This document shows positions 1 through 18,178 of a stretch of DNA of 32,000 nucleotides, one piece after another. The position numbers were made by a program, and so were the translations under genes. The notes below the pieces were generated by a model. The model was not told where the DNA came from, did no database searches, and saw only the letters and a list, made by a program, of their open reading frames with translations. The stretch's first letter is position 1, and every line of letters starts with the position of its first letter. The DNA lies in the NCBI RefSeq assembly GCF_900167395.1, contig NZ_FUWK01000027.1, positions 1-32,000 of the forward strand, given 5' to 3'. This DNA is from Nitrosomonas europaea. GTDB taxonomy: Bacteria > Pseudomonadota > Gammaproteobacteria > Burkholderiales > Nitrosomonadaceae.

Positions 1-918
1 ATGATTACCGGAGCGGCACAAATGGATGGTGCCATTCTGGTGGTATCAGCAGCTGATGGTCCGATGCCGCAAACGCGTGAGCATATTTTGCTGGCTCGGC
101 AAGTGGGGGTGCCCTACATCATCGTTTTCATGAACAAAGCGGACATGGTAGACGATGCTGAATTGCTTGAACTTGTCGAAATGGAGATACGCGAACTATT
201 GTCCAACTATGATTTTCCGGGTGACGACACACCTATTATCATTGGTTCGGCATTGAAAGCGCTGGAAGGAGATAAGAGTGATATTGGTGAAGCCGCCATT
301 CTGAAATTGGCAGAGGCACTGGATTCGTATATACCGGAGCCAGAAAGGGCAATTGATGGGGCTTTCATCATGCCTGTGGAAGACGTCTTCTCAATCTCTG
401 GGCGTGGGACCGTAGTCACGGGGCGTGTGGAGCGTGGGATAGTCAAAGTAGGTGATGAAATCGAAATCGTTGGATTGAAACCCACGATCAAGACAGTATG
501 TACCGGTGTGGAGATGTTCCGTAAATTGCTGGATCAGGGGCAGGCTGGTGATAACGTGGGTATCCTGTTAAGAGGTACCAAGCGAGAAGAAGTGGAGCGT
601 GGGCAGGTACTTGCCAAACCCGGCAGCATACTGCCACACACCAAGTTTACTGCAGAGATCTATGTGTTGAGCAAAGAAGAGGGTGGTCGTCATACACCAT
701 TTTTTGCGGGATATCGCCCACAGTTTTATTTCAGAACAACGGATGTGACAGGATCGATTGAGTTACCGGCAGGTGTTGAGATGGTGATGCCCGGGGATAA
801 TATCTCGGTCACAGTCAATCTGATTGCGCCGATTGCAATGGATGAAGGGCTGCGTTTTGCAATCCGTGAAGGTGGACGTACCGTAGGCGCAGGCGTGGTC
901 GCTAAAGTGATCGAATAA
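1..918 (+). CDS. tuf: Elongation factor Tu, 5'-truncated by the window edge (C-terminal 305 aa)
   Basis: Translation contains [29 protein letters not shown] ... [16 protein letters not shown], canonical EF-Tu domains I-III. It sits directly upstream of rpsJ, as in the str/S10 arrangement. Confidence 0.98.
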
Positions 919-979
919 ATCTGGGATTGGTTGTGGTAACGATCAGGGATACTTTTTAAAAATATACAATCTGTTTTTT

Positions 980-1288
980 ATGCAAAATCAAAAAATTCGA
1001 ATACGCTTAAAGGCATTTGATTATCGCCTGATAGATAAGTCAGCTATTGAAATAGTAGAAACAGCCAAGCGTACAGGTGCAGTTGTCAAGGGTCCTGTTC
1101 CACTTCCAACACGTATAGAACGATTTGATGTTTTGCGATCGCCACACGTAAATAAAACTTCTCGAGATCAGTTTGAGATTAGAACGCATTTAAGATTAAT
1201 GGATATTATTGACCCGACAGATAAGACAGTTGATGCATTAATGAAGCTTGATTTGCCGGCAGGAGTCGATGTTGAAATTAAGCTTTAA
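980..1288 (+). CDS. rpsJ: 30S ribosomal protein S10
   Basis: 102 aa reading [19 protein letters not shown]...[21 protein letters not shown]. First gene of the S10 operon order. Confidence 0.98.
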
Positions 1289-1335
1289 CTTAATGGTTGG
1301 CTGTAACAGGTAAAGATTCATTAAAGAGGAAAATA

Positions 1336-1983
1336 ATGAAACTAGGTTTAATCGGTAAAAAAATAGGTATGACGAGAGTATTTACCGAATCAGGAAACAG
1401 CATACCCGTTACTGTTCTTGACGTATCAGGAAATCGTGTGGTCCAGGTTAAAACAGAAGAAAAAGATGGTTATTCGGCGGTACAGCTAACACAGGGATAT
1501 CGTCGTAAAAATCGGATAACAAAAGCGTTGTCAGGACATTTCTCGCAAGCTGGAGTTGAAGCCGGAACTGTGATCAAGGAGTTTAGAGTTGATCATGATA
1601 TCGGTAGTGATATAAAAATTGGATCTGAAATCAGTGTTGAACTTTTTGAAGTGGGATCGAAGGTAGATGTATGTGGCATATCAATAGGAAAGGGATATGC
1701 TGGTACCATAAAGCGTCATAATTTTTCTTCAAGCAGAGCCAGTCACGGAAATTCAAGATCACATAATGTTCCTGGTTCGATTGGTATGGCGCAAGATCCT
1801 GGAAGAGTATTTCCCGGAAAAAAGATGACCGGGCATTTAGGGAATGCACAGTGTACTGTTCAGAATATAGAGGTTGTGCGTGTTGATGCCGGCAGGGGTT
1901 TACTATTTTTAAAAGGTTCGGTTCCAGGATCTAAGGGTAATGGTGTTTTTATACGTCCTGGCGTGAAACAGCCAAGTAAATAA
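1336..1983 (+). CDS. rplC: 50S ribosomal protein L3
   Basis: [17 protein letters not shown]-terminus. I chose the ATG at 1336, preceded by AAGAGGA (1324-1330), over the TTG at 1297 given in the ORF track. Confidence 0.96.
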
Positions 1984-2003
1984 CAACAGATGAGTGTGAG
2001 TAA

Positions 2004-2624
2004 ATGGTTAAAATTCCTTGTATATACGAAAACGGACAAATAGAAGATATAGAAGCATCAGAATCTGTTTTTGGCAGGGTTTATAACGAGGCGTTGGTTC
2101 ATCAGGTAGTTAAGTCTTATCTGGCGAACGCGAGAGCGGGAACACGTGCTCAGAAAGGGCGTTCAGATGTTACTGGCTCAACGCGGAAACAGTGGAGGCA
2201 GAAAGGAACGGGCAGGGCAAGAACAGGTGCCGCGACCAACCCACTCTGGCGTGGAGGTGGAAAAATTTTTCCAAATAAGCCTACAGAAAATTTCAAGCAG
2301 AAGTTAAATCGGAAAATGTATCGTGCTGGAATGTGCACAATATTTTCAGAATTATTAAGAAATAACAAGTTGGTGGCTATTGATGAGTTTCAGATAGAGA
2401 TGCCAAAAACAAAGGTTTGTCTGCAGAAATTAAAAAACTACCAGCTGGAAAATGTGATGATTATTACCAGTGAGATAGATAGCAATCTGTATCTGGCTTC
2501 CAGAAATCTTCCAAATCTAAAAGTGGTTGAAGTTGATTTAATAGATCCCGTTAGTTTGCTGGCATATGACAATGTGGTTATTACTCGGGATACGGTCAAT
2601 AAAATTGAAAATGTGCTGCAATGA
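2004..2624 (+). CDS. rplD: 50S ribosomal protein L4
   Basis: Motifs [34 protein letters not shown]. Position matches the operon order. Confidence 0.97.
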
Positions 2625-2956
2625 GAAATATTACGATAAGTAGTGAAAGAGCATTAGAAGTAATAAAAGCTCCACAGATTTCCGAAAAATCAACTTTTAT
2701 TGCAGAAAAAACGAAGCAAATCATATTTTATGTTTCGCGCGACGCAAATAAAACTGAAATTAAATCAGCAATTGAACAGATTTGGAGATCACAGAATATT
2801 CAGGTTAAGAGTGTGCAAGTGGTGAATGTGAAAGGAAAAAAGAAAAGATTTGGCCGTTATCTTGGACAAAAATCGGATTGGAAAAAAGCATTTGTAAGTC
2901 TTAAAGGGGATCGTGAGATAGACTTTACTGATGTTAAATTATTCGAGGATAAATGA
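2621..2956 (+). CDS. rplW: 50S ribosomal protein L23
   Basis: Contains APQISEKST and [17 protein letters not shown]. 4-nt ATGA overlap with the rplD stop. Confidence 0.96.
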
Positions 2957-3789
2957 TGGCACTAAGAAAAACCAAGCCCACCTCACCAGGCAGAAGAGCT
3001 GTAATTAAGTCCGTAAATAGTTTTATCTATAAAGGTAAGCCTTTTGCTGCATTAACGGAAAAAAAGAAAAAGAATGCGGGTAGGAACAACTCAGGCAGAA
3101 TAACGGTACGCCATATTGGTGGCGGACATAAACAACATTATCGTATAGTTGATTTCTGTAGAAATAAGGATGATATTCCTGCAAAAGTTGAACGTATTGA
3201 ATACGACCCTAATAGAAGTGCTTATATAGCTTTGCTTTGTTATGCCGATGGCGAAAGGCGGTACATCATTGCGGCAAAAGATATTGAGGTCGGCTCGTAT
3301 TTAGTAAGTGGTTCGAGCTCGCCCATTAAGATGGGTAACGCGATGCCTATACGGAATATACCTGTTGGAAGCGTAATACATTGCATTGAATTGAGACCAG
3401 GGAAAGGTGCACAGCTTGCACGGTCAGCCGGGTCATCAGCTCAGCTAATGGCGAAAGAAGGTGATTATTCTCAAATCAGACTAAGGTCGGGTGAGATTAG
3501 AAAAATTCATATAAGCTGCAGAGCCACGATAGGTGAAGTAAGCAATTCCGAACATAATTTGCAGTCAATTGGTAAAGCAGGTGCTATCCGATGGAGAGGA
3601 GTCAGGCCAACCGTCCGTGGCGTGGCAATGAATCCTATAGATCATCCGCACGGTGGTGGAGAAGGTAAAACAGCTGCAGGACGACATCCTGTCAGTCCTT
3701 GGGGAACTCCTTCGAAAGGGTCTCGTACAAGAAAAAATAAACGGACATCTAATATGATTGTTCGTAGTAGATATTCTAAGAAAGGTTAA
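2953..3789 (+). CDS. rplB: 50S ribosomal protein L2
   Basis: Contains [38 protein letters not shown]. Tandem ATGs at 2953 and 2956 are both possible starts and both overlap the rplW stop. Confidence 0.97.
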
Positions 3790-3794
3790 AAAAA

Positions 3795-4079
3795 ATGAGC
3801 CGATCTGTTTCCAAAGGACCGTTTGTCGATCTTCATCTTGTTAATAAGGTTTTATCTGCTCGTCAGAATAATGATAAAAAACCGATCAAAACCTGGTCGA
3901 GAAGGTCGACAATACTTCCCGATTTCATTGGCTTAACAATTTCAGTTCACAATGGTAGGCAGCATGTTCCCGTTTTTGTAACTGAAAATATGGTTGGCCA
4001 TAAACTTGGTGAATTTTCACATACTAGAACGTTTAAAGGTCATGCCGGAGATAAGAAGGCGGCTGGATCTAAACGATAG
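3795..4079 (+). CDS. rpsS: 30S ribosomal protein S19
   Basis: Contains [36 protein letters not shown]. Confidence 0.97.
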
Positions 4080-4087
4080 GATAATAT

Positions 4088-4420
4088 ATGGAAACATCCG
4101 CAGTTTTACGTAGCGTAAGGTTATCTGCCCAAAAGGGGCGTCTCGTTGCAGATCAAATACGTGGACTACAGGTAGAGCGAGCTATTAGACTTCTGACTTT
4201 TAGCCCTAAAAAGGGAGCTTCAATTATTTTAAAGCTTCTTGAGTCGGCTGTAGCAAATGCAGAGCACAATGAAGGTGCAGATATTGATGAATTGAAAATC
4301 AGCCAGATTTTCATAGGTCAGGGAGCTACCCTTAAACGTGTAAGTCCGCGTGCGAAAGGGAGGGGTAACCGGATATCGAAACCCACGTGCAACATTTTCT
4401 TGACTGTTTCGAATAAATAA
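4088..4420 (+). CDS. rplV: 50S ribosomal protein L22
   Basis: Contains [27 protein letters not shown]. Position matches the operon order. Confidence 0.96.
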
Positions 4421-4456
4421 AACGAGTCAAGTTTATAAGAGAAGGGTGAATAGTTT

Positions 4457-5104
4457 ATGGGTCAAAAAATTAATCCAACTGGGTTCAGGTTATCAGTTTT
4501 AAAAAACTGGTCTTCACGTTGGTATACAAATACAAAGAAGTTTTCGGATTTTTTAAATGAAGACATTAGTGTTAGGCAATATCTTCAAAAGAAACTGGCA
4601 CATGCTTCAGTTGGAAGTATCATAATTGAACGACCCTCAAAAAATGCGAAGATTACGATACATACGTCACGTCCTGGTGTAGTTATAGGTAAGAAAGGCG
4701 AAGATATAGAGATTCTTCGTAGAAATGTCGAAAAATTGATGAATGTACCGGTGCACATCAATATAGAGGAAATACGAAAACCTGAGATTGATGCGCAGCT
4801 TATTGCCGCAAGTATTACTCAGCAGCTCGAAAAAAGAATAATGTTCAGAAGGGCGATGAAGAGAGCTATACAGAATGCTATGCGCCTTGGTGCTCAAGGG
4901 ATAAAAATTATGAGTTCCGGCAGATTAAATGGTATAGAAATAGCTCGAACTGAATGGTATAGAGAAGGCAGGGTGCCACTTCATACGTTACGTGCAGAAG
5001 TTGATTACGGAACCTCAGAAGCCAGAACAACATATGGAATCATTGGTGTTAAAGTATGGGTTTTTAAAGGTGAGCAACTTGGTATTAAGGAAAGGCAAAA
5101 CTAA
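4457..5104 (+). CDS. rpsC: 30S ribosomal protein S3 (215 aa, short C-terminus)
   Basis: Contains [14 protein letters not shown]-domain region, [19 protein letters not shown]. It ends at ...[12 protein letters not shown] and lacks the basic tail present in E. coli S3. Confidence 0.96.
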
Positions 5105-5193
5105 CTTTTAACTCTGCAGTTATCTTGATAGACGCTTACTATTTAAAATTGCAGTTAACATCGTACATCCCGGAATAGCAAAGGAAATATGTA

Positions 5194-5610
5194 ATGTTAC
5201 AACCCGCCAGAACCAAATTTAGAAAACAGCATAAAGGTCGTAATACTGGCATAGCAACAAGAGGGGCAAAAGTCAGTTTTGGAGAATTTGGGTTAAAAGC
5301 CATTGGTCGTGGCAGATTGACTTCAAGACAGATTGAGGCCGCAAGGCGGGCTATGACGCGGCATATTAAACGAGGTGGTCGGATCTGGATAAGAGTATTC
5401 CCGGATAAACCTGTTTCGCAGAAACCTGCTGAGGTAAGGATGGGTAAAGGTAAGGGGAATCCTGAGTATTACGTTGCTGAAATTCAACCAGGTAAAATGC
5501 TCTATGAAATGGATGGAGTGGATGAGTCACTCGCACGTGAAGCATTTAGGTTGGCTGCAGCAAAACTGCCAATGCAGACCACTTTTGTAATTCGGCATTT
5601 GGGGAGTTGA
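5194..5610 (+). CDS. rplP: 50S ribosomal protein L16
   Basis: Contains [40 protein letters not shown]. Confidence 0.97.
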
Positions 5611-5617
5611 TTTTTAA

Positions 5618-5812
5618 ATGAAGGTACAAGAGCTACGGGAAAAAAATCTGTCGGAGTTGGGGAAAGAGCTTCTTTCTCTCAGAAGAGCGCAATTTGGCCT
5701 AAGACTGCAACATAGAACACAACAGCTTGCTAACGTATCCCAGATTAATAAAGTTCGTAAAGATATTGCGCGTCTCAAAACAATTATTCGTGAGAAAACA
5801 GGACAATTATGA
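5618..5812 (+). CDS. rpmC: 50S ribosomal protein L29
   Basis: 64 aa with ELREKN..EL..ELL.L.R.QF.LR.Q. Position matches the operon order. Confidence 0.93.
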
Positions 5813-6063
5813 GCTCAGACAATCAAAGCAAGACACTGATTGGACAGGTCGTGAGTGATAAAAGGGATAAAACTGTAACGGTAAGGATCGACAGAAAAGT
5901 AAAACATCCTCTGTATGGAAAAATTGTTACGCGCTCAAGTAAATATCACGCACATGATGAGCTCAATCAATATAAACTGGGTGATATTGTAGCCATAAGT
6001 GAAACTCGTCCAAAGTCAAAAACTAAGGCTTGGCAGGTAGTTAGAGTAATTAAAGTTAACTGA
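5809..6063 (+). CDS. rpsQ: 30S ribosomal protein S17
   Basis: Contains [14 protein letters not shown]...HPLYGK......KY.AHDE. ATGA overlap with rpmC. Confidence 0.95.
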
Positions 6064-6144
6064 TAGAAATTTTTATTGAGAGTCTTGGTTAATTTCTGTT
6101 TGTTAGTCGATACACTAGCCAAATTATAGATAGGAAACTGAAAC

Positions 6145-6513
6145 ATGATTCAGATGCAATCATTACTGAAAGTGGCTGATAACACTGGGGCACGTACAGT
6201 GATGTGTATTAAAGTCTTGGGCGGTTCAAAAAGAAGGTTTGCCGGGATCGGTGATGTTATCAAGGTCGCTGTAAAAGATGCTGCTCCACGGGGACGTATT
6301 AAAAGGGGCGAAGTATATAATGCAGTTATCGTGCGTACTGCAAAGGGAATTCGTAGAGCTGATGGCTCTTTAGTCAAATTTGATACTAACGCAGCAGTAA
6401 TCCTGAATAATAAGTTAGAGCCAATAGGTACTAGGATTTTTGGTCCGGTTACACGGGAGCTCCGTACGGCAAAATTCATGAAGATTGTTTCACTTGCTCC
6501 TGAAGTTATATAA
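6145..6513 (+). CDS. rplN: 50S ribosomal protein L14
   Basis: Contains [51 protein letters not shown]. The 81-nt gap after rpsQ fits the S10/spc operon boundary. Confidence 0.98.
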
Positions 6514-6530
6514 AGGGGAATTTATAGGTC

Positions 6531-6848
6531 ATGAAGAAAATTAGAAAAGGTGACAGTGTAATTGTCATAGCAGGCAAGGATAAAGGTAAGCAATCTACAG
6601 TCATCCGATTTCAAAGTACTGAAAGGGTAATAGTGAGAGAGGTAAATAAAGTTAAATCTCATATCAAACCTAATCCTAACAGAAATATTGCTGGTGGGAT
6701 TGTAGAAACTGAGAAACCTCTGCATATTTCAAATATTGCAATCTTCAATCCCGAAAAAAACAAAGCTGATAGAGTGGGCTTTAGATTTAATGAATCAGGT
6801 AATAAAGTACGGTATTTTAAATCTGATGGTACTTTGATAGATTCATAA
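6531..6848 (+). CDS. rplX: 50S ribosomal protein L24
   Basis: Contains [18 protein letters not shown] (KOW motif). Position matches the operon order. Confidence 0.95.
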
Positions 6849-6862
6849 AAGTGGATAGAGAA

Positions 6863-7402
6863 ATGGCACGATTGCTAGAATATTATAGAGATACGGTTAC
6901 TAAGGAACTTACACAGAAGTTTAATTATAAGACTGTAATGGAGGTTCCCAAAATTACTAAAATTACCTTGAATATGGGTGTTGGTGAGGCATCCACAGAC
7001 AAGAAAATTATAGAAAATGCTGTTAGTGATTTGGAAAAAATTTCGGCGCAGAAGCCTGTTGTGACCAAGGCCAGGAAGTCAATTGCCACTTTCAAGGTAA
7101 GGCAAGGTTACCCCGTTGGCTGTAAAGTAACTTTACGGGGTGTAAAAATGTACGAATTTTTAGATCGTCTTGTTAACGTTGCGATTCCGCGTATTCGTGA
7201 TTTTAGGGGAATTCAGGTCAAGGGATTTGATGGGCGTGGAAATTTTAATATGGGAATCAAAGAGCAGATTATCTTTCCTGAGATTGATTACGATAAGATT
7301 GATAAAGTGCGTGGTTTAAATATTACTGTTACTACAACTGCCAAGACTGACCAAGAAGCTAGAGCACTTTTATCAGCTTTTAAATTTCCGTTTAAAAATT
7401 AA
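6863..7402 (+). CDS. rplE: 50S ribosomal protein L5
   Basis: [11 protein letters not shown]...L...[21 protein letters not shown] chose the ATG at 6863, which aligns to the E. coli MAKLHDYYKD start, over the upstream GTG at 6851. Confidence 0.96.
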
Positions 7403-7412
7403 GGGATGTATC

Positions 7413-7718
7413 GTGGCAAAAAAGTCAATTGTAAACCGGAATTTGAAAAGATTAAAAACTGTTAATAAGTACGCTGCACGTCGTGCAGAGATAGTTTCTA
7501 TATTGAGAGATGCAGGATCTGATATTGAGGCTAAAGCATCAGCTAGAGATCTTCTTCAGAAATTACCCAGAAATGCCAGTCCGGTTAGGTTGCGGCAACG
7601 TTGTGCTTTAACTGGGAGACCAAGGGGAGTATTTAGTAAATTTGGTTTGGGCCGAATCAAGCTGCGTGAGATAGCCATGCGTGGTGAAATTCCAGGACTT
7701 ATAAAAGCAAGTTGGTAA
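7413..7718 (+). CDS. rpsN: 30S ribosomal protein S14 (long, non-zinc form)
   Basis: 101 aa, GTG start preceded by AAGGGA. Contains [11 protein letters not shown]...[21 protein letters not shown] and has no CxxC pairs. Confidence 0.95.
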
Positions 7719-7790
7719 TAATTGAGTTGCGAAGAGATTAAACTCGTAATTAGTTGGTTTCCCGTAAATGAAGAGTAGAATGGTGTATAT

Positions 7791-8186
7791 ATGTGCATGA
7801 CTGATCCTATAGCCGATATGCTTACGCGTATAAGAAATGCTCAATCGGCTGAGCAGAAAGAAATAAAAATGCCTTCTTCAAAATTAAAGAAAGCAATTTT
7901 GAAAATATTGAAAGAAGAGGGGTATATTGAGAATTTTCAAGAAGATCCCAATCATAAGAAGCCATCCATTAGCGTAATTCTTAAATATTTTAATGGTGAA
8001 CCTGTTATTACCTCAATTAGCCGGGTAAGTAAACCTGGATTGAGAAGTTATAAATCAAAGAATGATTTGCCGAGGGTAATGAATGGTTTGGGGGTAGCAA
8101 TAGTGTCAACTTCCAAGGGAGTTATGACAGAACGTACAGCGAGGATGGCTGGCGTTGGTGGTGAGTTATTGTGTGTGGTTACTTGA
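7791..8186 (+). CDS. rpsH: 30S ribosomal protein S8
   Basis: [17 protein letters not shown] parallels E. coli [17 protein letters not shown]. Also contains [12 protein letters not shown]. An alternative ATG lies at 7797. Confidence 0.96.
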
Positions 8187-8197
8187 GGTAATTATCA

Positions 8198-8740
8198 ATG
8201 TCATCAGTTTTTGTAACGACAAAACCTATAGAGATACCAAAATCTGTAGAAGTTCAGTTGACCGAGTTTGGCGTATTTATAAAAGGCCCATTGGGCAGTT
8301 TATTTCAAGCTATTGATGCACACAATGCTAAAATTGTTGTGAGTTCTGATCAGTTAACGATTGAGGCTTTAAATGCTACAAAGCAAACTAAGTCGATAGT
8401 TGGTACCCTTAAGGCTCTTATATCCAATATGATAAAAGGTGTAACAGCCGGATTTGAAAAAAAACTGCTTATTATTGGAGTTGGATATAAAGCTCAGGCA
8501 GCTGGTAATATTCTTAATTTAAATTTAGGTTTCTCTCATCCGGTTGCTTATACGGTTCCAGAAGGTATTAAGGTTGAAACACCGAGCACGACCGAAATTT
8601 TGATTAAGGGAATAGATAAACAGAAGGTAGGACAGGTTGCGGCAGAGGTGAGATCGTATCGACGTCCTGAACCTTATAAAGGTAAGGGGATACGTTATTT
8701 CGATGAGAAAGTTACGATTAAAGAGACTAAGAAAAAATAA
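8198..8740 (+). CDS. rplF: 50S ribosomal protein L6
   Basis: Contains GVGYKA, GFSHPV.Y..PEGI, YRRPEPYKGKGIRY. Confidence 0.96.
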   Translation: MSSVFVTTKPIEIPKSVEVQLTEFGVFIKGPLGSLFQAIDAHNAKIVVSSDQLTIEALNATKQTKSIVGTLKALISNMIKGVTAGFEKKLLIIGVGYKAQAAGNILNLNLGFSHPVAYTVPEGIKVETPSTTEILIKGIDKQKVGQVAAEVRSYRRPEPYKGKGIRYFDEKVTIKETKKK

Positions 8741-8754
8741 AGTAGGGGCTTGTA

Positions 8755-9114
8755 ATGTTGTTAAATACTAAGCAGATGCGTTTAAGGCGAGCCAAAGCGA
8801 CTAGAATTAAAATAGGAAACTCAAGGCAGTTTAGATTATCTGTTCATAAGAGCAATAATCATATTTATGCTCAGATTTTAGACCCTTCTTCAAATCGTGT
8901 GATTGTTAGTGCTTCTACGGTTGAAGCTGAAGTGAAGAAGCAGTATCCAAGCGGCGGAACAATTGAGGCAGCTAAGTATGTAGGACACTTAGTAGCAAAA
9001 AAATCTATTGAATCTCAAATTTATGAAGTAGCATTTGATAGATCAGGTTTTAAGTATCATGGTCGAATAAAAGCTCTTGCTGATGCAGCCAGATCAGCCG
9101 GTATGAAGTTTTAA
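8755..9114 (+). CDS. rplR: 50S ribosomal protein L18
   Basis: Contains [32 protein letters not shown]. Confidence 0.96.
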
Positions 9115-9130
9115 ACTAGAGGTAATCAAG

Positions 9131-9664
9131 GTGACGAAAACAACTAAATCTGCTAATACTAAAACCCCAGATGAGGTAAAAACAGATGGATTGAAAGAAA
9201 AAATGGTTTCTGTCAATCGTGTCACCAAAGTGGTAAAAGGTGGAAGGATTCTTGGTTTTGCAGCGTTGACAGTAGTTGGTGATGGAAAAGGTAGTGTTGG
9301 TATGGGCAAAGGAAAATCGCGAGAGGTGCCTCTTGCTGTTCAAAAAGCAATGGATGAAGCTCGACAGCGCATGGTTAGAGTTAACCTGATAAATGGGACG
9401 CTTCACCACTCTGTAATTGGGCGACATGGTGCAGCTAGAGTATATATGCAACCAGCTTCAGAAGGTACAGGTATTATCGCCGGAGGGCCAATGAGAGCGA
9501 TTTTTGAAGTGATGGGAGTTCATAATATTTTAGCTAAGTGCTTGGGCTCCACAAATCCTTATAATATTGTACGTGCTACCTTGGATGGATTAAGCAAAGT
9601 TCAAACGCCTGCAATGATTGCTGCTAAAAGAGGAAAAAGCATTGACGAGATTACTGGGGCTTGA
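9131..9664 (+). CDS. rpsE: 30S ribosomal protein S5
   Basis: GTG start 8 nt after TAGAGG. Contains VNRV.KVVKGGR...[24 protein letters not shown]. Confidence 0.96.
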
Positions 9665-9669
9665 AGTAA

Positions 9670-9855
9670 ATGGAAAAGCGAAAAACTATAAAGGTAACCT
9701 TGGTAAAAAGTTTGATTGGTACAAGGCATAGTCATAGATTGGTCATCAAAGGTATGGGGTTAAGAAGGTTGAACCATACAGTTTCTCTGTGTGATCATCC
9801 ATCAATAAGAGGAATGATCAACAAAACGGCCTATCTACTAAAAGTAGAGGAATAA
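9670..9855 (+). CDS. rpmD: 50S ribosomal protein L30
   Basis: 61 aa with [10 protein letters not shown]....HR....GLGLRR-like core. Position matches the operon order. Confidence 0.93.
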
Positions 9856-9856
9856 C

Positions 9857-10318
9857 GTGAAGCTTAATACAATAAAACCTGGTATTGGATCTGCTAAGCC
9901 TAAAAGGCGTGTGGGTCGGGGAATAGGCTCTGGGCTTGGTAAAACATGTGGAAGAGGGCACAAAGGACAGAAATCTCGTGCTGGCGGCTTTCATAAAGTT
10001 GGTTTCGAGGGCGGGCAAATGCCATTGCAACGTCGATTGCCAAAGAGAGGCTTTACTGTTTATGGTAAAAAACAGGTGAGGGAGATTAAGCTCTCTACCT
10101 TGCAGCTAATTGATTTAAGTGAGTTTAATCCGAGTGTTTTATATGATCATGGCTTGATAAAAAATATAAATGATCCAGTTAAGATTATTCTTGGTAATCA
10201 ATTAATTAAACGTGCGATTAAGATAAAAGACTTGATAATTTCGCGTGGAGCAAAAGAAGCGGTAGAGCAAATGGGTGGTTTGGTTGAACTAACTGTAAAA
10301 GATGTAAATGGTGTCTAA
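9857..10318 (+). CDS. rplO: 50S ribosomal protein L15
   Basis: GTG start. Contains [41 protein letters not shown]. Confidence 0.96.
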
Positions 10319-11633
10319 ATCTAAAGCTGCTTTGACTGATAGATTCTACGATCTAAAGAAACGGTTCTGGTTCTTAGTATTAGCTCTGATAGTATACCGT
10401 ATTGGTGCTCATGCCCCTGTTCCGGGGATTGATCCCGTTGTTTTGAAAGATCTGTTTGACTCCCAGGAAGGCGGGATTCTTGGTATGTTTAACATGTTCT
10501 CTGGGGGTGCACTGTCGAGGTTCTCTATATTTGCTCTTGGCATCATGCCGTATATATCTGCATCGATCATTATGCAGTTGGGTACTGTAGCAGTGCCTTA
10601 TTTGGAGTCTTTGAAAAAAGAAGGTGAATCTGGAAGGAAAAAGATTACACAATATACTCGTTACGGTACGTTATTCCTTTCTACATTGCAAAGTTACGGA
10701 ATCTCTATTGCGCTGCAATCACAACCTGGCTTAGTGATTCAGCCTGGTTTTTATTTTGTTGTTACAACGGTTATTACTCTTGTAACTGGAACCATGTTTC
10801 TTATGTGGCTAGGAGAACAGATTACTGAACGTGGCATCGGAAATGGCATTTCACTGATAATTTTTGCAGGAATCGCAGCAGGGCTTCCAAGTGCTATTGG
10901 TGGTACTTTAGAATTAGTGAATACTGGTGCAATGCATTTTCTTACAGCATTGTTCATTTTTGTTGCTGCAATAGCAATAACGTATTTTGTTGTATTCATT
11001 GAGCGTGGCCAGCGTAAAATTTTGGTTAATTACGCGAAAAGGCAGGTTGGTAAGCAAGTTATGGGTGGTCAATCCTCGCATTTACCATTAAAGCTGAATA
11101 TGTCTGGAGTCATACCACCGATATTTGCTTCAAGTATCATTCTATTCCCTGCTACGTTGGCTGGTTGGTTCTCGGATAGTCTATCATTGGACTGGTTGAA
11201 AGATTTTAGCAGCGCGTTGACACCGGGGCAGCCTATCTATGTTGCGCTATACGCTGCTTTAATTATTTTCTTTTGTTTTTTTTATACTGCACTTGTTTTT
11301 AATCCAAAAGAAACGGCTGATAACCTGAAAAAGAGCGGTGCCTTTATACCTGGAATAAGGCCTGGAGATCAAACCACAAGGTATATAGAACGTATTATGT
11401 TGAGACTTACATTGATTGGCTCAATATATGTCACATTGGTTTGTCTGCTACCAGAGTTTATGATTCTGAAGTGGAATGTTCCATTTTATTTTGGTGGAAC
11501 ATCGCTATTAATCATAGTAGTAGTTACGATGGATTTCATGGCTCAAGTTCAGTCTCATGTGATGTCTGGCCAATATGAAAGTTTATTAAAGAAAGCCAAT
11601 TTTAAGGCTGGTGGCAGTAGTTTCTCGCGATAG
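10308..11633 (+). CDS. secY: Preprotein translocase subunit SecY
   Basis: 441 aa polytopic membrane protein with [38 protein letters not shown]. 11-nt overlap with rplO. Confidence 0.97.
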
Positions 11634-11640
11634 GTTTTTA

Positions 11641-11859
11641 ATGGCTAAAGAAGAAACTATACAAATGCAGGGTGAGGTTATAGAAACACTCCCGAATGCT
11701 ACTTTCAGGATAAAGTTAGAAAATGGTCATATTGTGTTAGGTCATATCTCGGGTAAGATGAGGATGAATTATATCCGGATACTACCAGGAGATAAGGTAA
11801 CGGTTGATTTGACACCTTATGATTTAACGAGAGCTCGGATAACCTTTCGGACTAAATAA
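11641..11859 (+). CDS. infA: Translation initiation factor IF-1
   Basis: [55 protein letters not shown]. The ATG at 11641 matches the E. coli MAKEDNIEMQG start. Confidence 0.97.
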
Positions 11860-11904
11860 AACTTAATCCAACTTTTGATAGTATAAATATATAGTGAGTA
11901 TTTT

Positions 11905-12018
11905 ATGAAAGTTCGTGCATCAATCAAAAAAATATGTAGGAATTGCAAAATAATAAGGCGGTATGGTGTTGTGCGTGTTATTTGTGTTGATGCTAGGCAT
12001 AAACAACGTCAAGGCTGA
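11905..12018 (+). CDS. rpmJ: 50S ribosomal protein L36 (zinc-binding C-x2-C-x12-C-x4-H form)
   Basis: Not in the ORF track because it is too short. My translation is [37 protein letters not shown], 37 aa, lying between infA and rpsM as expected. Confidence 0.95.
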
Positions 12019-12047
12019 ATTTAGTATTTTATGTTAGGGTAGGAAAA

Positions 12048-12407
12048 ATGGCTCGTATAGCAGGTGTTAATTTACCTAGTAACAAGCATGTCAATATAGC
12101 ATTGACAGCAATTTATGGAATAGGGAACACGACAGCTCGTAAAATTTGTTCTGATTTGCAGATTCCACCTTTTATTAAGCTTAAAGATTTGGAAGATATT
12201 AAGCTAGATGAATTAAGAGAATCGGTTTCAAAATTGATTGTTGAGGGGGATCTACGTAGAGAGATCTCGATGAATATCAAAAGATTGATAGACCTTGGCA
12301 GTTATCGGGGATTGAGACATCGTCGTGGTTTGCCGGTACGAGGTCAGAGAACTAAAACCAATGCTCGAACCAGAAAAGGGCCACGTAAAGCGATAGGTGC
12401 AAAGTAA
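12048..12407 (+). CDS. rpsM: 30S ribosomal protein S13
   Basis: Contains [20 protein letters not shown]...[27 protein letters not shown]. Confidence 0.97.
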
Positions 12408-12447
12408 TAAAAATTGTTTCTAATATACTTCTTAAACAAAGAAATTA

Positions 12448-12837
12448 ATGGTAAAGCCTTCATTAAAAATTCGTAAAAAAGTTAAAAAAAATGTTGTTGA
12501 GGGGGTGGCGCATATTCACGCCTCCTTCAATAACACAATCGTGACTATTTCTGATCGTCAAGGGAATGCTCTTTCTTGGGCAACATCGGGCGGGGTGGGA
12601 TTTAAGGGTTCGCGTAAAAGCACCCCATTTGCAGCACAAGTTGCTGCAGAACATGCAGGCAGGGCAGCGCTGGAATACGGCGTTAAAAATTTGGAGGTAA
12701 GAGTAAAAGGGCCCGGGCCGGGTCGTGACTCTGCTGTACGAGCTCTCAACGCTACAGGTTTTAAAATTACCAGCATAACCGATGTGACACCCATACCTCA
12801 CAATGGATGTAGGCCGCCTAAGAAACGTCGTATCTAA
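12448..12837 (+). CDS. rpsK: 30S ribosomal protein S11
   Basis: Contains [23 protein letters not shown]...[27 protein letters not shown]. Confidence 0.97.
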
Positions 12838-12851
12838 GAAGGAGAAAATTT

Positions 12852-13478
12852 GTGGCCAGAAATATAAATCCAAAGTGTCGTCAGTGTCGTCGTGAAGGTG
12901 AAAAGCTGTTTCTCAAGGGGGATAAGTGTTTTAGTGATAAGTGCCCCATAGAACGAAGGAATTATCCACCTGGGCAACATGGACAAAAGAAGGTAAGGTT
13001 GTCTGATTACGCAGTGCAGCTCAGGGAAAAGCAGAAAATAAGAAGAATTTATGGACTGCTTGAGAACCAGTTCCGTAATGTTTATAAGCGAGCTGATAAA
13101 CAAAAAGGTGTTACAGGTGACAATTTATTACAGCTTCTGGAAAGCCGTCTTGATAATGTCGCCTATAATATGGGATTTGGATCTTCCAGATCAGAAGCAA
13201 GGCAGATAGTAAGGCATAACTGCGTTCTATTGAACGGAAAAAGAGCAAATATCCCATCTCATTTAGTTGAGCCTGGTGATCTTATTGAAATTGCTGAACA
13301 TGCAAAGAGCTATTTGAGAATCAAAGCTTCTATCGAAGCAGCCAAACGTCGTAGCATTCCATCTTGGCTGGAGGTGGATTTTGATAACCTCAAGGGCCTT
13401 TATAAGAGTAAGCCTGAGCGTAGTGATTTATCTTCGACAATTAACGAATCTTTAGTTGTGGAACTTTATTCCAAGTAG
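12852..13478 (+). CDS. rpsD: 30S ribosomal protein S4 (four-Cys N-terminal form)
   Basis: GTG start 8 nt after AAGGAG. Contains [55 protein letters not shown]...[10 protein letters not shown]. Confidence 0.96.
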
Positions 13479-13507
13479 TTGGCACTTTTTTATATATTGG
13501 CGTATTT

Positions 13508-14518
13508 ATGTCATCGAATAGTTTTCTGACACCTAGGATTGTAGAGGTACATAATATTTCACCTTTGCATGCGAAGGTCGTAATGGAGCCTTTTGAGCAT
13601 GGTTTTGGCTATACTTTGGGTAATGCGTTGCGAAGAGTATTGCTATCTTCCATTCCTGGTTGTGCACCAACCAAAGTCAGCATTAGCGGAGTAGTTCATG
13701 AATATTCAACAATAGATGGTTTACAAGAGGATGTTGTTGATCTGATACTGAACTTGAAAGGGGTGGTTCTTAAACTTCACAATAATAAGACTCAGTCAGT
13801 TCTTACCCTGAAGAAAAGTTCGGAAGGTATTGTCACAGCGGGTGATATTGAAGCTACTCATGATGTAGAAATAGTAAACCCTGATCATGTGATTGCTCAT
13901 ATTACCAGTGGCGGTAAAATTGAGGCTCAAATTACTGTTGAAAAGGGGAGGGGTTATTGGCCTTCTGCTAATCGCAGTAAAGAGGATAAAAGTTCTTCTT
14001 CGATTGGGGATATTCTGTTAGATGCTTCTTTCAGTCCGATCAGACGTGTAAGTTACGCTGTGGAAAGTGCTCGTGTTGAACAAAGAACTGATCTAGATAA
14101 GCTGATTATCGACATAGAGACAAATGGTTCGGTAGATCCTGAAGAAGCGATACGGTATGCGGCCAAGGTCTTGGTTGAGCAGTTTTCTTTCTTCGCAGAC
14201 CTTGAAAGTACACCGCTGCCGACAGAACAGCCAAAAGCACCTGTCATCGACCCTATACTATTACGTCCAGTTGATGATTTGGAACTTACAGTACGTTCTG
14301 CAAACTGTTTGAAAGTCGAGAATATTTTTTATATTGGTGATTTGATTCAACGAACTGAGGCAGAGCTACTTCGTACTCCTAATTTGGGAAGGAAGTCACT
14401 TAATGAAATTAAAGAAGTTCTTGCTTCTCGTGATTTATCCTTGGGTATGAAATTAGAAAATTGGCCACCAGCTAATTTGGAAAACTATATAAAGGAACCC
14501 GGTCATGCGTCATCGTAA
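13508..14518 (+). CDS. rpoA: DNA-directed RNA polymerase alpha subunit
   Basis: 336 aa with [33 protein letters not shown], and the alpha-[50 protein letters not shown]. Confidence 0.98.
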
Positions 14519-14897
14519 TGGTTTACGGAAGTTAAACCGTACTTCAAGCCATCGGTTGGCTATGTTCAGGAATCTTACAAATTCATTACTTGAACATGAA
14601 ATTATTAAAACTACGCTTCCAAAAGCTAAAGAACTTCGACGTGTCGTTGAACCGGTGATTACTTTGGGTAAGAATCCCTCGCTTGCAGGCAAGCGCTTGG
14701 CGTTTGACAGACTGAGAAATAGAGATAATGTAATTAAGATATTCTCTGAGTTGGGGCCTCGCTACCAAAACCGGAATGGAGGCTATATAAGGATCCTAAA
14801 GTGTGGTTTCAGGAGAGGTGATAATGCCCCAATGGCTATCGTAGAATTGTTGGATAGACCTGAAGCTGGCATCATTTCTAATGATTCAGCAGATTAA
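14505..14897 (+). CDS. rplQ: 50S ribosomal protein L17
   Basis: [22 protein letters not shown].....[22 protein letters not shown]. Its start overlaps the last 14 nt of rpoA. Confidence 0.97.
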
Positions 14898-14972
14898 GTA
14901 ATTATCTTCTCATTTAGAATCTGTTTGGACCTGCTTCTTTATACGTAGTTAACCAAGTTGCCGGATAAATCG

Positions 14973-15016
14973 CCCCAGTTCAGAATTTTTGATAAATGAT
15001 GAGTTGGGGTGTTTTT
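14973..15016 (+). terminator. Candidate intrinsic terminator of the alpha operon
   Basis: CCCCAGTTCA (14973-14982) pairs with TGAGTTGGGG (15000-15009), giving 10 bp including 2 G-U pairs and a 17-nt loop. It is followed by GTTTTT (15011-15016), about 75 nt after the rplQ stop. Confidence 0.45.
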
Positions 15017-15051
15017 AATTTCTACAATTGAAATTCAGTAATAAAATATTT

Positions 15052-15080
15052 TTGCTAGAAGTCAGCAATTAATATAAATA
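15052..15080 (+). promoter_or_regulatory. Candidate sigma70 promoter for tRNA-Thr
   Basis: TTGCTA (15052-15057), then TATAAA (15073-15078, 15-nt spacer) or TAAATA (15075-15080, 17-nt spacer). A GC-rich CCCGCG discriminator follows just before the tRNA 5' end. Hand-matched to the consensus only. Confidence 0.3.
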
Positions 15081-15090
15081 TTTCCCGCGA

Positions 15091-15166
15091 GCCGCAGTAA
15101 CTCAGTTGGTAGAGTAGCTGATTCGTAATCAGCAAGTCGGAGGTTCGACTCCTCTCTGCGGCACCA
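15091..15166 (+). tRNA. tRNA-Thr (anticodon CGT/CGU), 76 nt with encoded CCA
   Basis: Hand-folded cloverleaf. Acceptor GCCGCAG/CTGCGGC, D stem ACTC/GAGT with AGTTGGTA loop, anticodon stem GCTGA/TCAGC with loop TTCGTAA, variable AAGTC, T arm GGAGG-TTCGACT-CCTCT, discriminator A plus CCA. Confidence 0.92.
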
Positions 15167-15231
15167 AAATACCGCATCGATATTGCTACAATACTTTTAA
15201 CCAGGGCTACAGTAACTCTCTCTGGTAACCT

Positions 15232-15543
15232 CTATTTTTGCCCCTTTGTAAGACGATCTGATTTCAGTCTGCGCTTTTCTTTTGGATCGATAACGAGAGG
15301 CCTGTATATTTCGATACGGTCATTCTGATGGAGGATTGTTTCCGGGTCGGTGATTTTCCCATGGATCCCTGTTTTGAGTGCGGTACTATCACTTCCAGGA
15401 TAGAAATTCTCTACGCCGGAAAGTTTGATTGCCTGGTACATTGAAGTACCCATTGGAACTTGAAGTCGCCTGAGGAATTGTCGTTGAGGAAGTGCAAAGG
15501 CGACTTCTATGGTGATTGATTCCTTCCTAGATGCTGGGACCAT
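15232..15543 (-). CDS. rnfH: RnfH/RatB family ubiquitin-like small protein (UPF0125)
   Basis: 103 aa with I.IEVAFALPQRQFL...DRIEIYRPL..DPKE.RR, similar to E. coli YfjF/RatB. 17-nt overlap with the upstream ratA. Confidence 0.85.
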   Translation of the reverse strand: MVPASRKESITIEVAFALPQRQFLRRLQVPMGTSMYQAIKLSGVENFYPGSDSTALKTGIHGKITDPETILHQNDRIEIYRPLVIDPKEKRRLKSDRLTKGQK

Positions 15544-15970
15544 AAATTTTTTCTGCTTGTTCTACAAAGGCTTCTACAAAATTATTAGCAATGACATAAA
15601 ATACCGGGCCAACCAGTTTCTCAAGCAATTTATGTGAGAATGTGTAATGTAATTGGAACTCGATCTTACAGGCATTCTCCGACAAAGGGATAAATCGCCA
15701 ATAGCCGTTCAGTTTTTCGAAGGGTCCTTCCACGAGTTCCATTTTGATCAGTTCGGGCGGATGGCGTGTGTTCTTTGTGGTAAAGCTATGCTTGATGTGA
15801 TGATAATCAATATGAACGGTTGCCTGTGCCGTTTCATTATCTTCCATAAGCTTCATTGAAGCACCTGAACACCACGGTAGAAAATCCGGATAGTTTTCTA
15901 CCGTATCCACCAGACGAAACATCTGACTCGCTGAATAACCTACCAGTACTGTTTTTTCTATTTCAGCCAT
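15527..15970 (-). CDS. ratA: SRPBCC-fold RatA/YfjG (CoQ10-like, ribosome-association toxin family) protein
   Basis: 147 aa with V.YSA.QMF.LV.DVE.YP.FLPWC. The conserved ratA-rnfH pair is divergent from smpB, as in E. coli. Confidence 0.85.
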   Translation of the reverse strand: MAEIEKTVLVGYSASQMFRLVDTVENYPDFLPWCSGASMKLMEDNETAQATVHIDYHHIKHSFTTKNTRHPPELIKMELVEGPFEKLNGYWRFIPLSENACKIEFQLHYTFSHKLLEKLVGPVFYVIANNFVEAFVEQAEKIYGPSI

Positions 15971-16065
15971 AACGCCATATTCCCTTATTCAGGGCGTAAG
16001 GATACTAAAAACTGATACACTAAACGAAAATTTTTCATAAGCAAATTTTCTTTCCGTTGTACTCG

Positions 16066-16521
16066 ATGAGCATTGTGCAAAATAAAAAAGCTTTTCACGA
16101 TTATTTTATCGAGGAAAAGTATGAGGCCGGCATTGTGCTTGAAGGATGGGAGGTTAAAGCAATCCGCGCTGGACGAGCTCAGTTGAAAGAAGCCTATATA
16201 CTGATCCGCAAAGGTGAGTTGTTTCTTATCGGGAGCCATATAAGTCCATTAGCAACGGCGTCAACTCATGTAAATCCTGATCCGGTTAAAACGCGCAAAC
16301 TGTTGTTGCATGCATCACAAATAAGAGAGCTCATCGGTAAGGTGGAACGTGCCGGATATACCCTGATTCCGCTAGATATGCATTATAAATCAGGTAGAAT
16401 CAAGCTGGAAATTGGCCTCGCGCGAGGCAAAAAACAATACGACAAACGCGAAACTGAAAAACGTAAGGAATGGGAGCGTGACAAGCAGCGTTTGTTGCGT
16501 ATACGACGCTCCTCTGATTGA
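16066..16521 (+). CDS. smpB: SsrA(tmRNA)-binding protein SmpB
   Basis: Contains [41 protein letters not shown] chose the ATG at 16066 over the TTG at 16057. Confidence 0.95.
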
Positions 16522-16526
16522 TATTT

Positions 16527-17597: not shown

Positions 17598-17693
17598 CTC
17601 AGTCTGTTTTCTGGTCAGCCTGGTAGCGATACGCCTATTCCAATATATGAAATTTCAGAGTGAAACAAATAACCAGCATAAGGGGATGTGCTG

Positions 17694-18107
17694 ATGGAAG
17701 GATCAGTACCAGGTTTCTGGCGTCGTATGCTGGCATTGGCTTATGAGTCCTTACTGTTACTAGGAGTATGGTTCATCGCTGCCTTCCTGTTTCATCTCCT
17801 TTTTCGAGATCCCACAGCCGAATACTTCAGGCCGCTGTTCCAGTTTTACCTGTTAATTGTCGGTGGTATTTACTTTATCTGGTTCTGGACACACAGTGGC
17901 CAGACTCTGGCCATGCAGACCTGGAAATTACGCCTTGTTTCTGCAAATAATGGAAAAGTCACTACACAGCAGGCCATGGTTCGTTACCTGATGGCAGTAA
18001 TAGGCATCAGTTTTCTGGGGTTTGGGCTATTATGGGCTTTGTTTGATCGTAATCGGCAATTCCTGCACGACAGGGTGGCTGGTACACGGATCATAAGACT
18101 TGGATGA
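17694..18107 (+). CDS. RDD family membrane protein
   Basis: Small membrane protein with WRR..A...D/E...L N-terminal segment, GQT.G....L.L and the C-terminal HDR.AGT.I motif typical of the RDD domain. The ATG at 17694 is 7 nt after GGGGA. Confidence 0.7.
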   Translation: MEGSVPGFWRRMLALAYESLLLLGVWFIAAFLFHLLFRDPTAEYFRPLFQFYLLIVGGIYFIWFWTHSGQTLAMQTWKLRLVSANNGKVTTQQAMVRYLMAVIGISFLGFGLLWALFDRNRQFLHDRVAGTRIIRLG

Positions 18108-18178
18108 ATGTAGAAGTGATGGCTGCTTCCATTATTGTGGTGTCAAGGTATACCAATTCTCGCAGCTGTAAAACAAGC

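Follow-up and report, generated by a model that had tools for sequence, protein, structure and literature searches.

The window analysed here, a stretch of 32,000 nucleotides (nt) at the start of contig NZ_FUWK01000027.1 of Nitrosomonas europaea, contains the S10-spc-alpha ribosomal supercluster, a block of 29 genes from rpsJ to rplQ that is markedly poorer in GC than the DNA around it. Our results make it highly likely that this block is the native, vertically inherited supercluster, that it is correctly assembled, and that its low GC is a lineage-typical property arising from a locally different substitution bias. This bias is maintained and still operating, while as to its cause we infer that it may lie in a force that raises the GC content of the rest of the genome.

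The block was defined as positions 980-14897 (rpsJ to rplQ), and the stretch 16518-32000 was used as the reference flank. GC content was 39.6% in the block (0.394 over 919-15090) and 0.510 in the flank, with 0.500 in tuf (1-918) and 0.432 in the interval 15091-16521. Mean GC of 60-nt lines displayed the same contrast, with 0.396 in the block (standard deviation 0.070, n = 232) vs 0.510 in the flank (standard deviation 0.066, n = 258). Pooled GC content at third codon positions (GC3) was 0.315 over 4409 block codons and 0.546 over 4019 flank codons (chi-square 458, p = 1.6e-101), which places the block 11 GC points and 23 GC3 points below its surroundings. All 29 genes, rpmJ and the non-ribosomal secY, infA, and rpoA included, had GC3 values between 0.24 and 0.37. 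Meanwhile, values outside the block were 0.49 for tuf, 0.41-0.43 for rnfH, ratA, and smpB, and 0.49-0.60 for the genes located between 16.5 and 30 kb. The GC3 of tuf differed from that of the block (p = 8e-10) and showed no significant difference from that of the flank (p = 0.05). These computations bear out an initial annotation of the sequence, which had described from hand counts a sharply bounded AT-rich block of about 38% GC in a context of about 53% (39.6% and 51% when computed exactly). Its GC3 counts were reproduced to the codon for rplW (28/111), the last 63 codons of rplB (16/63), and the first 120 codons of tuf (57/120), and the line at 841-900, put at about 58% GC, has 60%.

The switch at the left edge had been placed inside the 61-nt spacer between tuf and rpsJ, and this was confirmed by GC3 in bins of 51 codons, which was 0.39-0.57 in the six bins of tuf and 0.20 and 0.31 in the two bins of rpsJ. 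As had also been noticed, the transition at the right edge is soft. It begins past a tRNA-Thr(CGT) gene and runs through the intermediate values of rnfH, ratA, and smpB and of the interval 15091-16521 given above. Both edges do coincide with tuf and a tRNA gene, as the initial annotation stated. Promoter and terminator scans returned nothing over shuffle expectation at either edge, and no terminator-like hairpin or site was found in the tuf-rpsJ spacer. Likewise, no integrase or transposase open reading frames (ORFs) were found at either edge, where tuf and tRNA-Thr were the only border features, although no search was aimed at direct repeats.

The composition of the cluster in related bacteria was obtained by scanning for the L6 protein, retaining one genome per species and 10 kb on each side. 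This yielded 80 loci, N. europaea itself not being among them, and the closest was PE_soil1 (91% identity). Cluster GC3 was about 0.2-0.4 in every Nitrosomonas locus, while background GC3 ranged from 0.23 to 0.65 among lineages. The immediate flanks had GC3 values of 0.23-0.45 in most Nitrosomonas metagenome-assembled genomes, and in the pepA region GC3 spanned 0.34-0.43 for N. stercoris and 0.37-0.41 for N. communis, compared with 0.57-0.68 for Is24 and 0.52-0.60 for the window. Since the cluster is nearly constant within the genus and the background is variable, the contrast is strong in N. europaea only because its background is GC-richer (GC3 about 0.55). The contrast is bigger in the distant Nitrosomonas sp. 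Is35, in which gyrA (0.65), argDFG (0.51-0.54), and tuf (0.47) stand against 0.17-0.31 for rpsJ through rplO. In most other betaproteobacteria, the GC3 of the cluster is just 0-0.07 under that of its flanks. The downstream synteny and gradient are kept in PE_soil1, two N. eutropha strains, and HPC101 (L013-L016), with GC3 of 0.29-0.42 in rnfH, ratA, and smpB, 0.43-0.47 in ctaA, and 0.49-0.51 in the RDD gene. Low GC of the cluster is a genus-wide, lineage-typical property. The presence of low GC3 at the orthologous cluster of all Nitrosomonas relatives examined speaks against a transfer.

The shift also extends to operons that are not linked to the supercluster. In the closed genome of N. eutropha C91, rpsL-rpsG-fusA-tuf1-rpsJ and the following genes lie at 0.57 Mb, and pilMNOPQ-tuf2-secE-nusG-rplKAJL-rpoBC lies at 1.9 Mb. 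At the second site, GC3 is 0.47-0.52 in the pil genes and 0.44 in tuf2, and past tuf2 it drops to 0.36 in secE, 0.34 in nusG, 0.33 in rplK, 0.26 in rplA, 0.34 in rplJ, 0.29 in rplL, and 0.36 in rpoB, with 0.42 in the 5′ part of rpoC. In L103, a strain sharing 94% identity with the window, tuf has a GC3 of 0.48 and is followed by a secE-side operon at 0.26-0.38, and a genome related to Is35 (L113) displays the same fall after the second tuf copy. The genes rpsL, rpsG, and fusA are intermediate (0.33-0.44). For N. europaea ATCC 19718, the genome mean GC3 is 0.58 (standard deviation 0.10), and values of 0.39 for rpoB, 0.39 for atpD, 0.56 for infB, and 0.56 for trpB have been published (PMC6928123). 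The initial annotation had asked whether other highly expressed operons share the low GC3: the secE-rpoBC operon does so in N. eutropha, L103, and L113, and the rpsL-rpsG-fusA (str) operon does so mildly. Because several unlinked operons share the shift, one en-bloc transfer cannot account for them.

A further low value was observed in the Is35-related genome, where hupB (L113, 2829-3101), which encodes the protein HU, has a GC3 of 0.32 where its neighbours have 0.39-0.53. High expression is typical of HU, and this case suggests that the AT shift reaches further single-copy, highly expressed genes beyond the translation operons.

The descent of the block was assessed by joining 28 of its proteins into one alignment of 4,432 columns and building a neighbour-joining distance tree, and that of the flank through a ranking of PepA matches. 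In the block tree, the window grouped with PE_soil1, then with N. eutropha and HPC101, and then with Bin_1, in a clade sister to other Nitrosomonas within the Nitrosomonadaceae, and it was not nested in any low-GC lineage. The PepA ranking placed the N. europaea group at 99-86%, further matches at about 80%, HPC101 at 78%, N. halophila at 75%, N. stercoris at 74%, N. communis at 71%, and other Nitrosomonas and Nitrosospira at 67-70%. Both share the order of N. europaea group, N. eutropha/HPC101, deeper cluster-7 relatives, and other Nitrosomonas. At conserved four-fold sites, 1847 of them in the block and 383 in the right flank, identity to PE_soil1 was 0.743 and 0.742, respectively, indicating that block and flank are of the same age. 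Identity to N. eutropha at these sites was 0.42 in the block and 0.50 in the flank, where 0.30 would be expected by chance. Four-fold sites are thus near saturation between the two species, yet GC3 is still about 0.3 in both, so the composition is being maintained and is no fading relic. The idea of a lag, by which an ancestral low GC had simply not been erased, is ruled out by the same observation.

Polymorphism within N. europaea points in the same direction. We compiled about 200 variable sites from contigs 99.3-99.97% identical to the window and polarised the single-nucleotide polymorphisms (SNPs) by minority allele. The per-site ratio of G or C to A or T changes (S>W) over the reverse (W>S) was 2.16 in the block, corresponding to an equilibrium GC of 0.32, vs 1.10 in the flank, corresponding to 0.48 (likelihood-ratio test, p = 0.02). 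Block SNPs comprised 45 S>W and 32 W>S changes, an S>W fraction of 0.58 where 0.42 was expected under the flank bias (p = 0.004). Within the limits of few SNPs and minority-allele polarisation, they gave no sign of amelioration of the block towards the regime of the flank.

These findings bear on the two explanations by which block and flank would differ in origin, both put forward in the initial annotation. According to one of them, the 29-gene supercluster was replaced en bloc by that of a low-GC donor, through recombination anchored in tuf and the tRNA gene. Sharp composition edges at a conserved gene and a tRNA, a codon usage such as a genome with about 38-40% GC would have, and the fact that tuf is a recombination-active repeat are all compatible with such a xenologous replacement. 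However, low GC3 is common to all relatives and the flanks are common to the N. europaea/eutropha clade, the block tree agrees with taxonomy and with the PepA ranking, and synonymous divergence to PE_soil1 is equal in block and flank. Moreover, a transferred signature would have ameliorated, whereas four-fold sites are near saturation relative to N. eutropha with GC3 unchanged, and there is no W>S excess among the SNPs. The secE-rpoBC and str operons are shifted too, which would call for several parallel transfers, and no closer donor lineage was present among the 80 loci. Replacement is very improbable on this evidence, and replacement after the split from N. eutropha is refuted for practical purposes. 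The initial annotation had itself named a lineage-typical property with congruent phylogeny as the outcome that would tell against transfer, and this is essentially the picture given by the relatives, the unlinked operons, the block tree, and the PepA ranking.

The other explanation held that contigs of two organisms had been joined at conserved tuf or tRNA sequence. As would be expected if chimeras formed there, short-read metagenome assemblies place the tuf gene, a 1.2-kb repeat, next to different neighbours (zwf-tuf-rpsJ, zwf-tuf-secE, and fusA-tuf-rpsJ). Against this, a protein of the block and one of the flank, exact L4 (CAD84313.1) and exact PepA (CAD84352.1), are both encoded on the closed N. 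europaea ATCC 19718 chromosome (2,812,094 bp), 39 accession numbers apart, which identifies the window as DNA of this strain. Both junctions lie within one 110-kb contig of the Joint Genome Institute (JGI), Ga0169454_100202, and a 40-kb contig of the European Nucleotide Archive (ENA) with 407x coverage extends from rpsE to beyond valS. The order rplQ-rnfH-ratA-smpB-ctaA-RDD recurs in at least 8 independent assemblies (ENA, JGI, Logan), 4 of which extend into dnaX, and the rplQ-rnfH-ratA-smpB junction is also found in N. eutropha C91, HPC101, and PE_soil1. Positions 1-12624 of the window are present at 100% identity in a second chromosome-level assembly (L005) and in two JGI contigs (L003, L006), and as L003 on the one hand and L005 and L006 on the other are all identical to the window, either upstream neighbour of tuf belongs to the same genome. 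The closed chromosome and the independent contigs over both junctions refute the chimera, to which we assign a practically negligible probability. The contigs with exact L4 that were inspected revealed no second cluster copy, showing only two contexts upstream and a single common block downstream, although no full-genome scan was made.

The bias of the block is not classical translational codon optimisation. Among two-fold pyrimidine codons, the C/(C+U) ratio is 0.21 in the block vs 0.44 in the flank, and the block uses ATA for 33% of Ile, AGA and AGG for 49% of Arg, and TTA for 25% of Leu. A Sharp-type S index of codon selection, which is positive when C-ending codons for Phe, Tyr, Ile, and Asn are enriched, is -1.37 in the block and -0.20 in low-GC Nitrosomonas relatives, the latter value indicating that selection for codons ending in C cannot be detected in the genus. 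Spacers are shifted as well, with 30% GC in the block vs 42% in the flank. The same applies to the proteins, in which the fraction of Phe, Tyr, Met, Ile, Asn, and Lys (FYMINK) is 0.292 for the block, 0.285-0.322 for Nitrosomonas, 0.27-0.28 for Nitrosospira-like bacteria, and 0.243-0.266 for other betaproteobacteria. This agrees with the earlier remark that variable parts of the encoded proteins are rich in Ile, Lys, and Asn while the proteins remain betaproteobacterial in character. The amino-acid composition of PepA showed no clear trend over lineages. Base frequencies at four-fold sites are A 0.29, C 0.12, G 0.17, T 0.42 for the block, while those for plus-strand genes of the flank are A 0.20, C 0.25, G 0.35, T 0.20. 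Expression-linked codon selection had been dismissed beforehand because EF-Tu, the product of tuf, is expressed at least as highly as ribosomal proteins. Codon selection is indeed not the cause (S of -1.37), but the argument from EF-Tu is weak, as tuf is a special two-copy case. A third early proposal, that of a region-specific mutational regime, came closest in that a special substitution regime is at work; it did not foresee that this regime applies to a genus-wide class of operons at several loci and not to one region.

The two copies of tuf help to understand the sharp left edge. The second tuf context was reached through 99%-identical and N. eutropha EF-Tu proteins. The paralogs share 97.9% identity in N. 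eutropha and 99.1% in a strain similar to N. europaea, while orthologs of the two species share 84%, and the repeat homology starts 20 or 3 nt 5′ of the start codon and ends exactly with the stop codon. The copies are kept alike by gene conversion (concerted evolution). Duplicated tufA and tufB genes of prokaryotes are reported to undergo long-lasting concerted evolution (PMC6053082), and the present copies are alike in that they are 98-99% identical within genomes vs 84% between species, with homology ending at the ORF ends. Codon usage of tuf is background-like, e.g., 0.34 for G-ending four-fold codons. In three genomes, tuf has a GC3 of 0.44-0.49 vs 0.25-0.36 in the genes just past the repeat end. 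The left edge is thus sharp because tuf is a gene-converted two-copy repeat with background-like codons that ends at its stop codon. In betaproteobacterial loci that include tuf, its GC3 is above that of the adjacent cluster by about 0.05-0.28, so the step between tuf and rpsJ is general and is amplified here.

Gaps of 0.25-0.3 between tuf and cluster were observed in two Burkholderiales of about 53% GC, namely 0.82 vs about 0.55 in L043 and 0.83 vs about 0.57 in L054. The gene neighbourhood of tuf varies as well. The S10 operon of the N. europaea-type chromosome lies after tRNA-Tyr/Gly/Thr-tuf (L005, 7284-7661), a tufB-type context with zwf upstream, and in N. eutropha C91 it follows rpsL-rpsG-fusA-tuf1 instead. 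The differing neighbours (zwf-tuf-rpsJ, zwf-tuf-secE, and fusA-tuf-rpsJ) result either from a rearrangement mediated by tuf or from ambiguous assembly across the repeat.

Regarding the cause of the bias, we tentatively prefer an explanation based on differences in the reach of a GC-raising force. In Nitrosomonas, single-copy, heavily transcribed operons (S10-spc-alpha, secE-nusG-rplKAJL-rpoBC, and, more mildly, rpsL-rpsG-fusA) have a far AT-richer substitution equilibrium than the remaining genome. These translation and transcription operons would be near the AT-biased mutational equilibrium, and the force would lift multicopy tuf and the remainder of the genome while acting weakly on them. 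The right edge corresponds to the end of the alpha operon and the tRNA gene, followed by small genes of intermediate composition. The force would most plausibly be recombination-associated GC-biased gene conversion, a process hypothesised for bacteria by Lassalle et al. 2015 (PMC4450053). Such conversion would explain the constancy of the cluster, the exception of tuf with a step at the repeat end, and the partial spill-over into neighbours on either strand. It is a rather doubtful extension of this idea that Nitrosomonas provides a natural experiment for GC-biased gene conversion, with single-copy translation operons at AT equilibrium in every lineage (GC3 0.2-0.35), a recombination-dependent lift of the background that differs in strength between lineages (GC3 0.23-0.65), and tuf, possibly also amoCAB, lifted exactly up to the repeat boundary.

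Two further causes deserve consideration. Highly expressed genes may have been selected to keep ancestral AT-ending codons, or AT-rich, cheap, and weakly folded transcripts, while the background rose in GC. The GC3 of ribosomal protein genes is near constant (0.2-0.35) over backgrounds of 0.23-0.65, four-fold codons ending in U (GCU, GGU, GUU, ACU, CCU) are enriched, rpoB, atpD, and hupB are low as well, and the same pattern has been interpreted in this manner in Lactobacillus (PMC5629928). Even so, the S index is -1.37 here vs +1.2 to +1.3 in those lactobacilli, ribosomal protein genes of the low-GC relatives do not differ from their flanks in the selected direction (S of -0.20), and ATA and AGA/AGG are used in excess. 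The AT shift extends to non-coding spacers and amino acids, and neither tuf nor amoB, the latter a very highly expressed gene, displays it. We therefore regard such selection as unlikely. Transcription-associated mutagenesis, in which heavy transcription would leave cytosines of the non-template strand open to deamination and the coding strand of these operons would undergo C-to-T changes, appears to us more unlikely still. In its favour, T gains most at the four-fold sites of the block (T 0.42 vs A 0.29; G 0.17 vs C 0.12), the transcribed spacers are T-rich and C-poor, and the T excess recurs in the secE-rpoB operon of N. eutropha. On the other hand, the shift is symmetric in Is35, the opposite-strand genes rnfH and ratA are partly shifted, and tuf is unshifted although it lies directly upstream with no terminator-like site in between and although EF-Tu is presumably highly expressed. 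Moreover, to our knowledge, a GC3 drop of 0.23 is far above known transcription-coupled asymmetries. A purely strand-asymmetric form of transcription-coupled deamination was downgraded on account of the symmetric shift of Is35 and the unaffected tuf.

Several points weigh against the interpretation of the block as a native supercluster held at an AT-richer equilibrium and spared by GC-biased conversion. Only about 0.1 Mb of genome was examined, expression levels were assumed, and the SNP spectra are supportive only. High-expression operons are an imperfect predictor of the shift: infB lies at the genome mean of N. europaea (PMC6928123), while rnfH and ratA, on the opposite strand, have intermediate GC3. 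Low GC3 (0.25-0.35) also occurs upstream of rpsL in copC, copD, a hypothetical gene, and ykuD, which have no role in translation (L001, 1-4221; L099, 1-6488). On the same contigs, which are close to N. europaea, GC3 steps from 0.51 in amoB to 0.42 in orf4 and orf5 and to 0.30 in copC, a step that may fall where the amo repeat ends. Four-fold sites have no single strand-specific signature, since the shift is symmetric in Is35 (A 0.37, T 0.39) and T-heavy in N. europaea and N. eutropha. GC-biased conversion as the cause is itself inferred, and a conversion bias in tuf is hypothetical. Finally, an ancient replacement from an unsampled donor, preceding the whole N. europaea/eutropha/Bin_1 clade, is formally possible.

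The features of the window are given in Table 1. Genes were called from ORFs and from Pfam families on loci 100% identical to the window (L003, L005, and L006; L116-L123 for the alpha operon). The supercluster has canonical gene content and order, with all genes on one strand. Some spacers within the S10 and spc operons are long, namely rpsC-rplP (89 nt, 5105-5193), rpsQ-rplN (81 nt, 6064-6144), and rpsN-rpsH (72 nt, 7719-7790), and the rpsC-rplP spacer is also long in relatives (84 nt in N. eutropha and 66 nt in Is35). An Rfam scan found no leader families of ribosomal proteins in the block and no match in these spacers, the tRNA and the signal recognition particle (SRP) RNA being the only matches. 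Opposite valS, several minus-strand ORFs of 88-215 aa (30174-31987) are probably antisense shadows and were not used as background genes.

Table 1 Genes, operons, and compositional zones of the window, with positions counted from its first nucleotide
Feature	Position	Strand	Remarks
tuf (EF-Tu), 3′ 305 codons	1-918	+	GC 0.50, GC3 0.49; Pfam GTP_EFTU on identical loci
tuf-rpsJ spacer	919-979	+	GC 0.31; holds the composition step
S10 operon	980-6063	+	GC3 0.25-0.37
rpsJ	980-1288	+	S10 operon
rplC	1336-1983	+	S10 operon
rplD	2004-2624	+	S10 operon
rplW	2621-2956	+	S10 operon
rplB	2953-3789	+	S10 operon
rpsS	3795-4079	+	S10 operon
rplV	4088-4420	+	S10 operon
rpsC	4457-5104	+	S10 operon
rplP	5194-5610	+	S10 operon
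rpmC	5618-5812	+	S10 operon
rpsQ	5809-6063	+	S10 operon
spc operon	6145-11633	+	GC3 0.24-0.35
rplN	6145-6513	+	spc operon
rplX	6531-6848	+	spc operon
rplE	6863-7402	+	spc operon
rpsN	7413-7718	+	spc operon
rpsH	7791-8186	+	spc operon
rplF	8198-8740	+	spc operon
rplR	8755-9114	+	spc operon
rpsE	9131-9664	+	spc operon
rpmD	9670-9855	+	spc operon
rplO	9857-10318	+	spc operon
secY	10308-11633	+	spc operon
infA to rplQ	11641-14897	+	GC3 0.24-0.37
infA	11641-11859	+	upstream of alpha operon
rpmJ	11905-12018	+	upstream of alpha operon
rpsM	12048-12407	+	alpha operon
rpsK	12448-12837	+	alpha operon
rpsD	12852-13478	+	alpha operon
rpoA	13508-14518	+	alpha operon
rplQ	14505-14897	+	alpha operon
tRNA-Thr (anticodon CGT)	15091-15166	+	directly after alpha operon; ARAGORN; Rfam RF00005, 70.7 bits
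Transition zone	15232-16521		GC3 0.41-0.43
rnfH	15232-15543	-	transition zone
ratA	15527-15970	-	transition zone
smpB	16066-16521	+	transition zone
Background	16518-32000		GC 0.51, GC3 0.49-0.60
ctaA/COX15	16518-17597		background
RDD	17688-18107		background
SRP RNA, bacterial small (ffs)	18216-18314	+	just 5′ of dnaX; Rfam RF00169, 78 bits
dnaX	18501-20078		background
ybaB			between dnaX and pepA
pseudouridine synthase			between dnaX and pepA
methyltransferase		-	between dnaX and pepA
tadA			between dnaX and pepA
ykuD			between dnaX and pepA
maeB			between dnaX and pepA
HAD hydrolase		-	upstream of pepA
HDOD-GGDEF protein		-	upstream of pepA
pepA	27700-29193		background
holC			background
valS	from about 30268	+	runs past the window end; position from L007

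The significance of these findings is mainly cautionary. Horizontally acquired genomic islands with atypical GC are found beside tRNA genes, and the loss of such a signature over time is reportedly described by the amelioration model that Lawrence and Ochman proposed in 1997 for horizontally acquired DNA. The block resembles these islands in its sharp bounds, in its atypical GC and codon usage, and in having a tRNA gene at one of its edges. It differs from them in its core translation content, its congruent phylogeny and divergence, a composition shared with relatives and with unlinked operons, and the lack of amelioration. Composition-based detectors would call the block a foreign island, although it is the most vertically inherited part of the genome. 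In Nitrosomonas, composition-based transfer calls, binning by GC or tetranucleotides, and indices of codon selection (S, or the codon adaptation index with a ribosomal protein reference) will misbehave. In addition, ribosomal protein operons that stay near-constantly AT-rich over backgrounds differing by up to 0.4 GC3, together with the exception of tuf, form a tractable system in which to ask what keeps bacterial GC above mutational equilibrium, although the residual interest is modest.

The phenomenon is already on record for N. europaea, and its novelty is low. According to the citation in dos Reis and Wernisch (PMC2639113), Sharp et al. 2005 pointed out N. europaea and Xylella for the peculiar base composition of their highly expressed genes, and a group of clustered genes for ribosomal proteins is the main low-GC outlier in Xylella fastidiosa (PMC8495750). 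As far as that citation conveys, this precedent concerns the same organism and the same phenomenon, in which the composition of the translation genes yields spurious negative estimates of codon selection, and the S of -1.37 obtained here is of this kind. The literature found, in which Sharp et al. 2005 is represented through citing papers only, did not include the constancy across lineages, the step at the tuf boundary, the equal synonymous divergence of block and flank, or the SNP spectra. The closest parallel in other bacteria comes from Lactobacillus delbrueckii and L. fermentum, whose ribosomal protein genes kept AT-rich codons after the background switched from AT to GC (Sun, Tamarit and Andersson 2016, PMC5629928). 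As in Nitrosomonas, the GC3 of ribosomal protein genes is far under that of the genome, relatives are AT-rich, and it is the background that moved and not the ribosomal protein genes. The two systems differ in the direction of codon selection, since S is +1.2 to +1.3 in these lactobacilli, which indicates translational selection, whereas Nitrosomonas combines a negative S with the over-use of rare-type ATA and AGA/AGG codons and thus lends no support to selection for old optimal codons.

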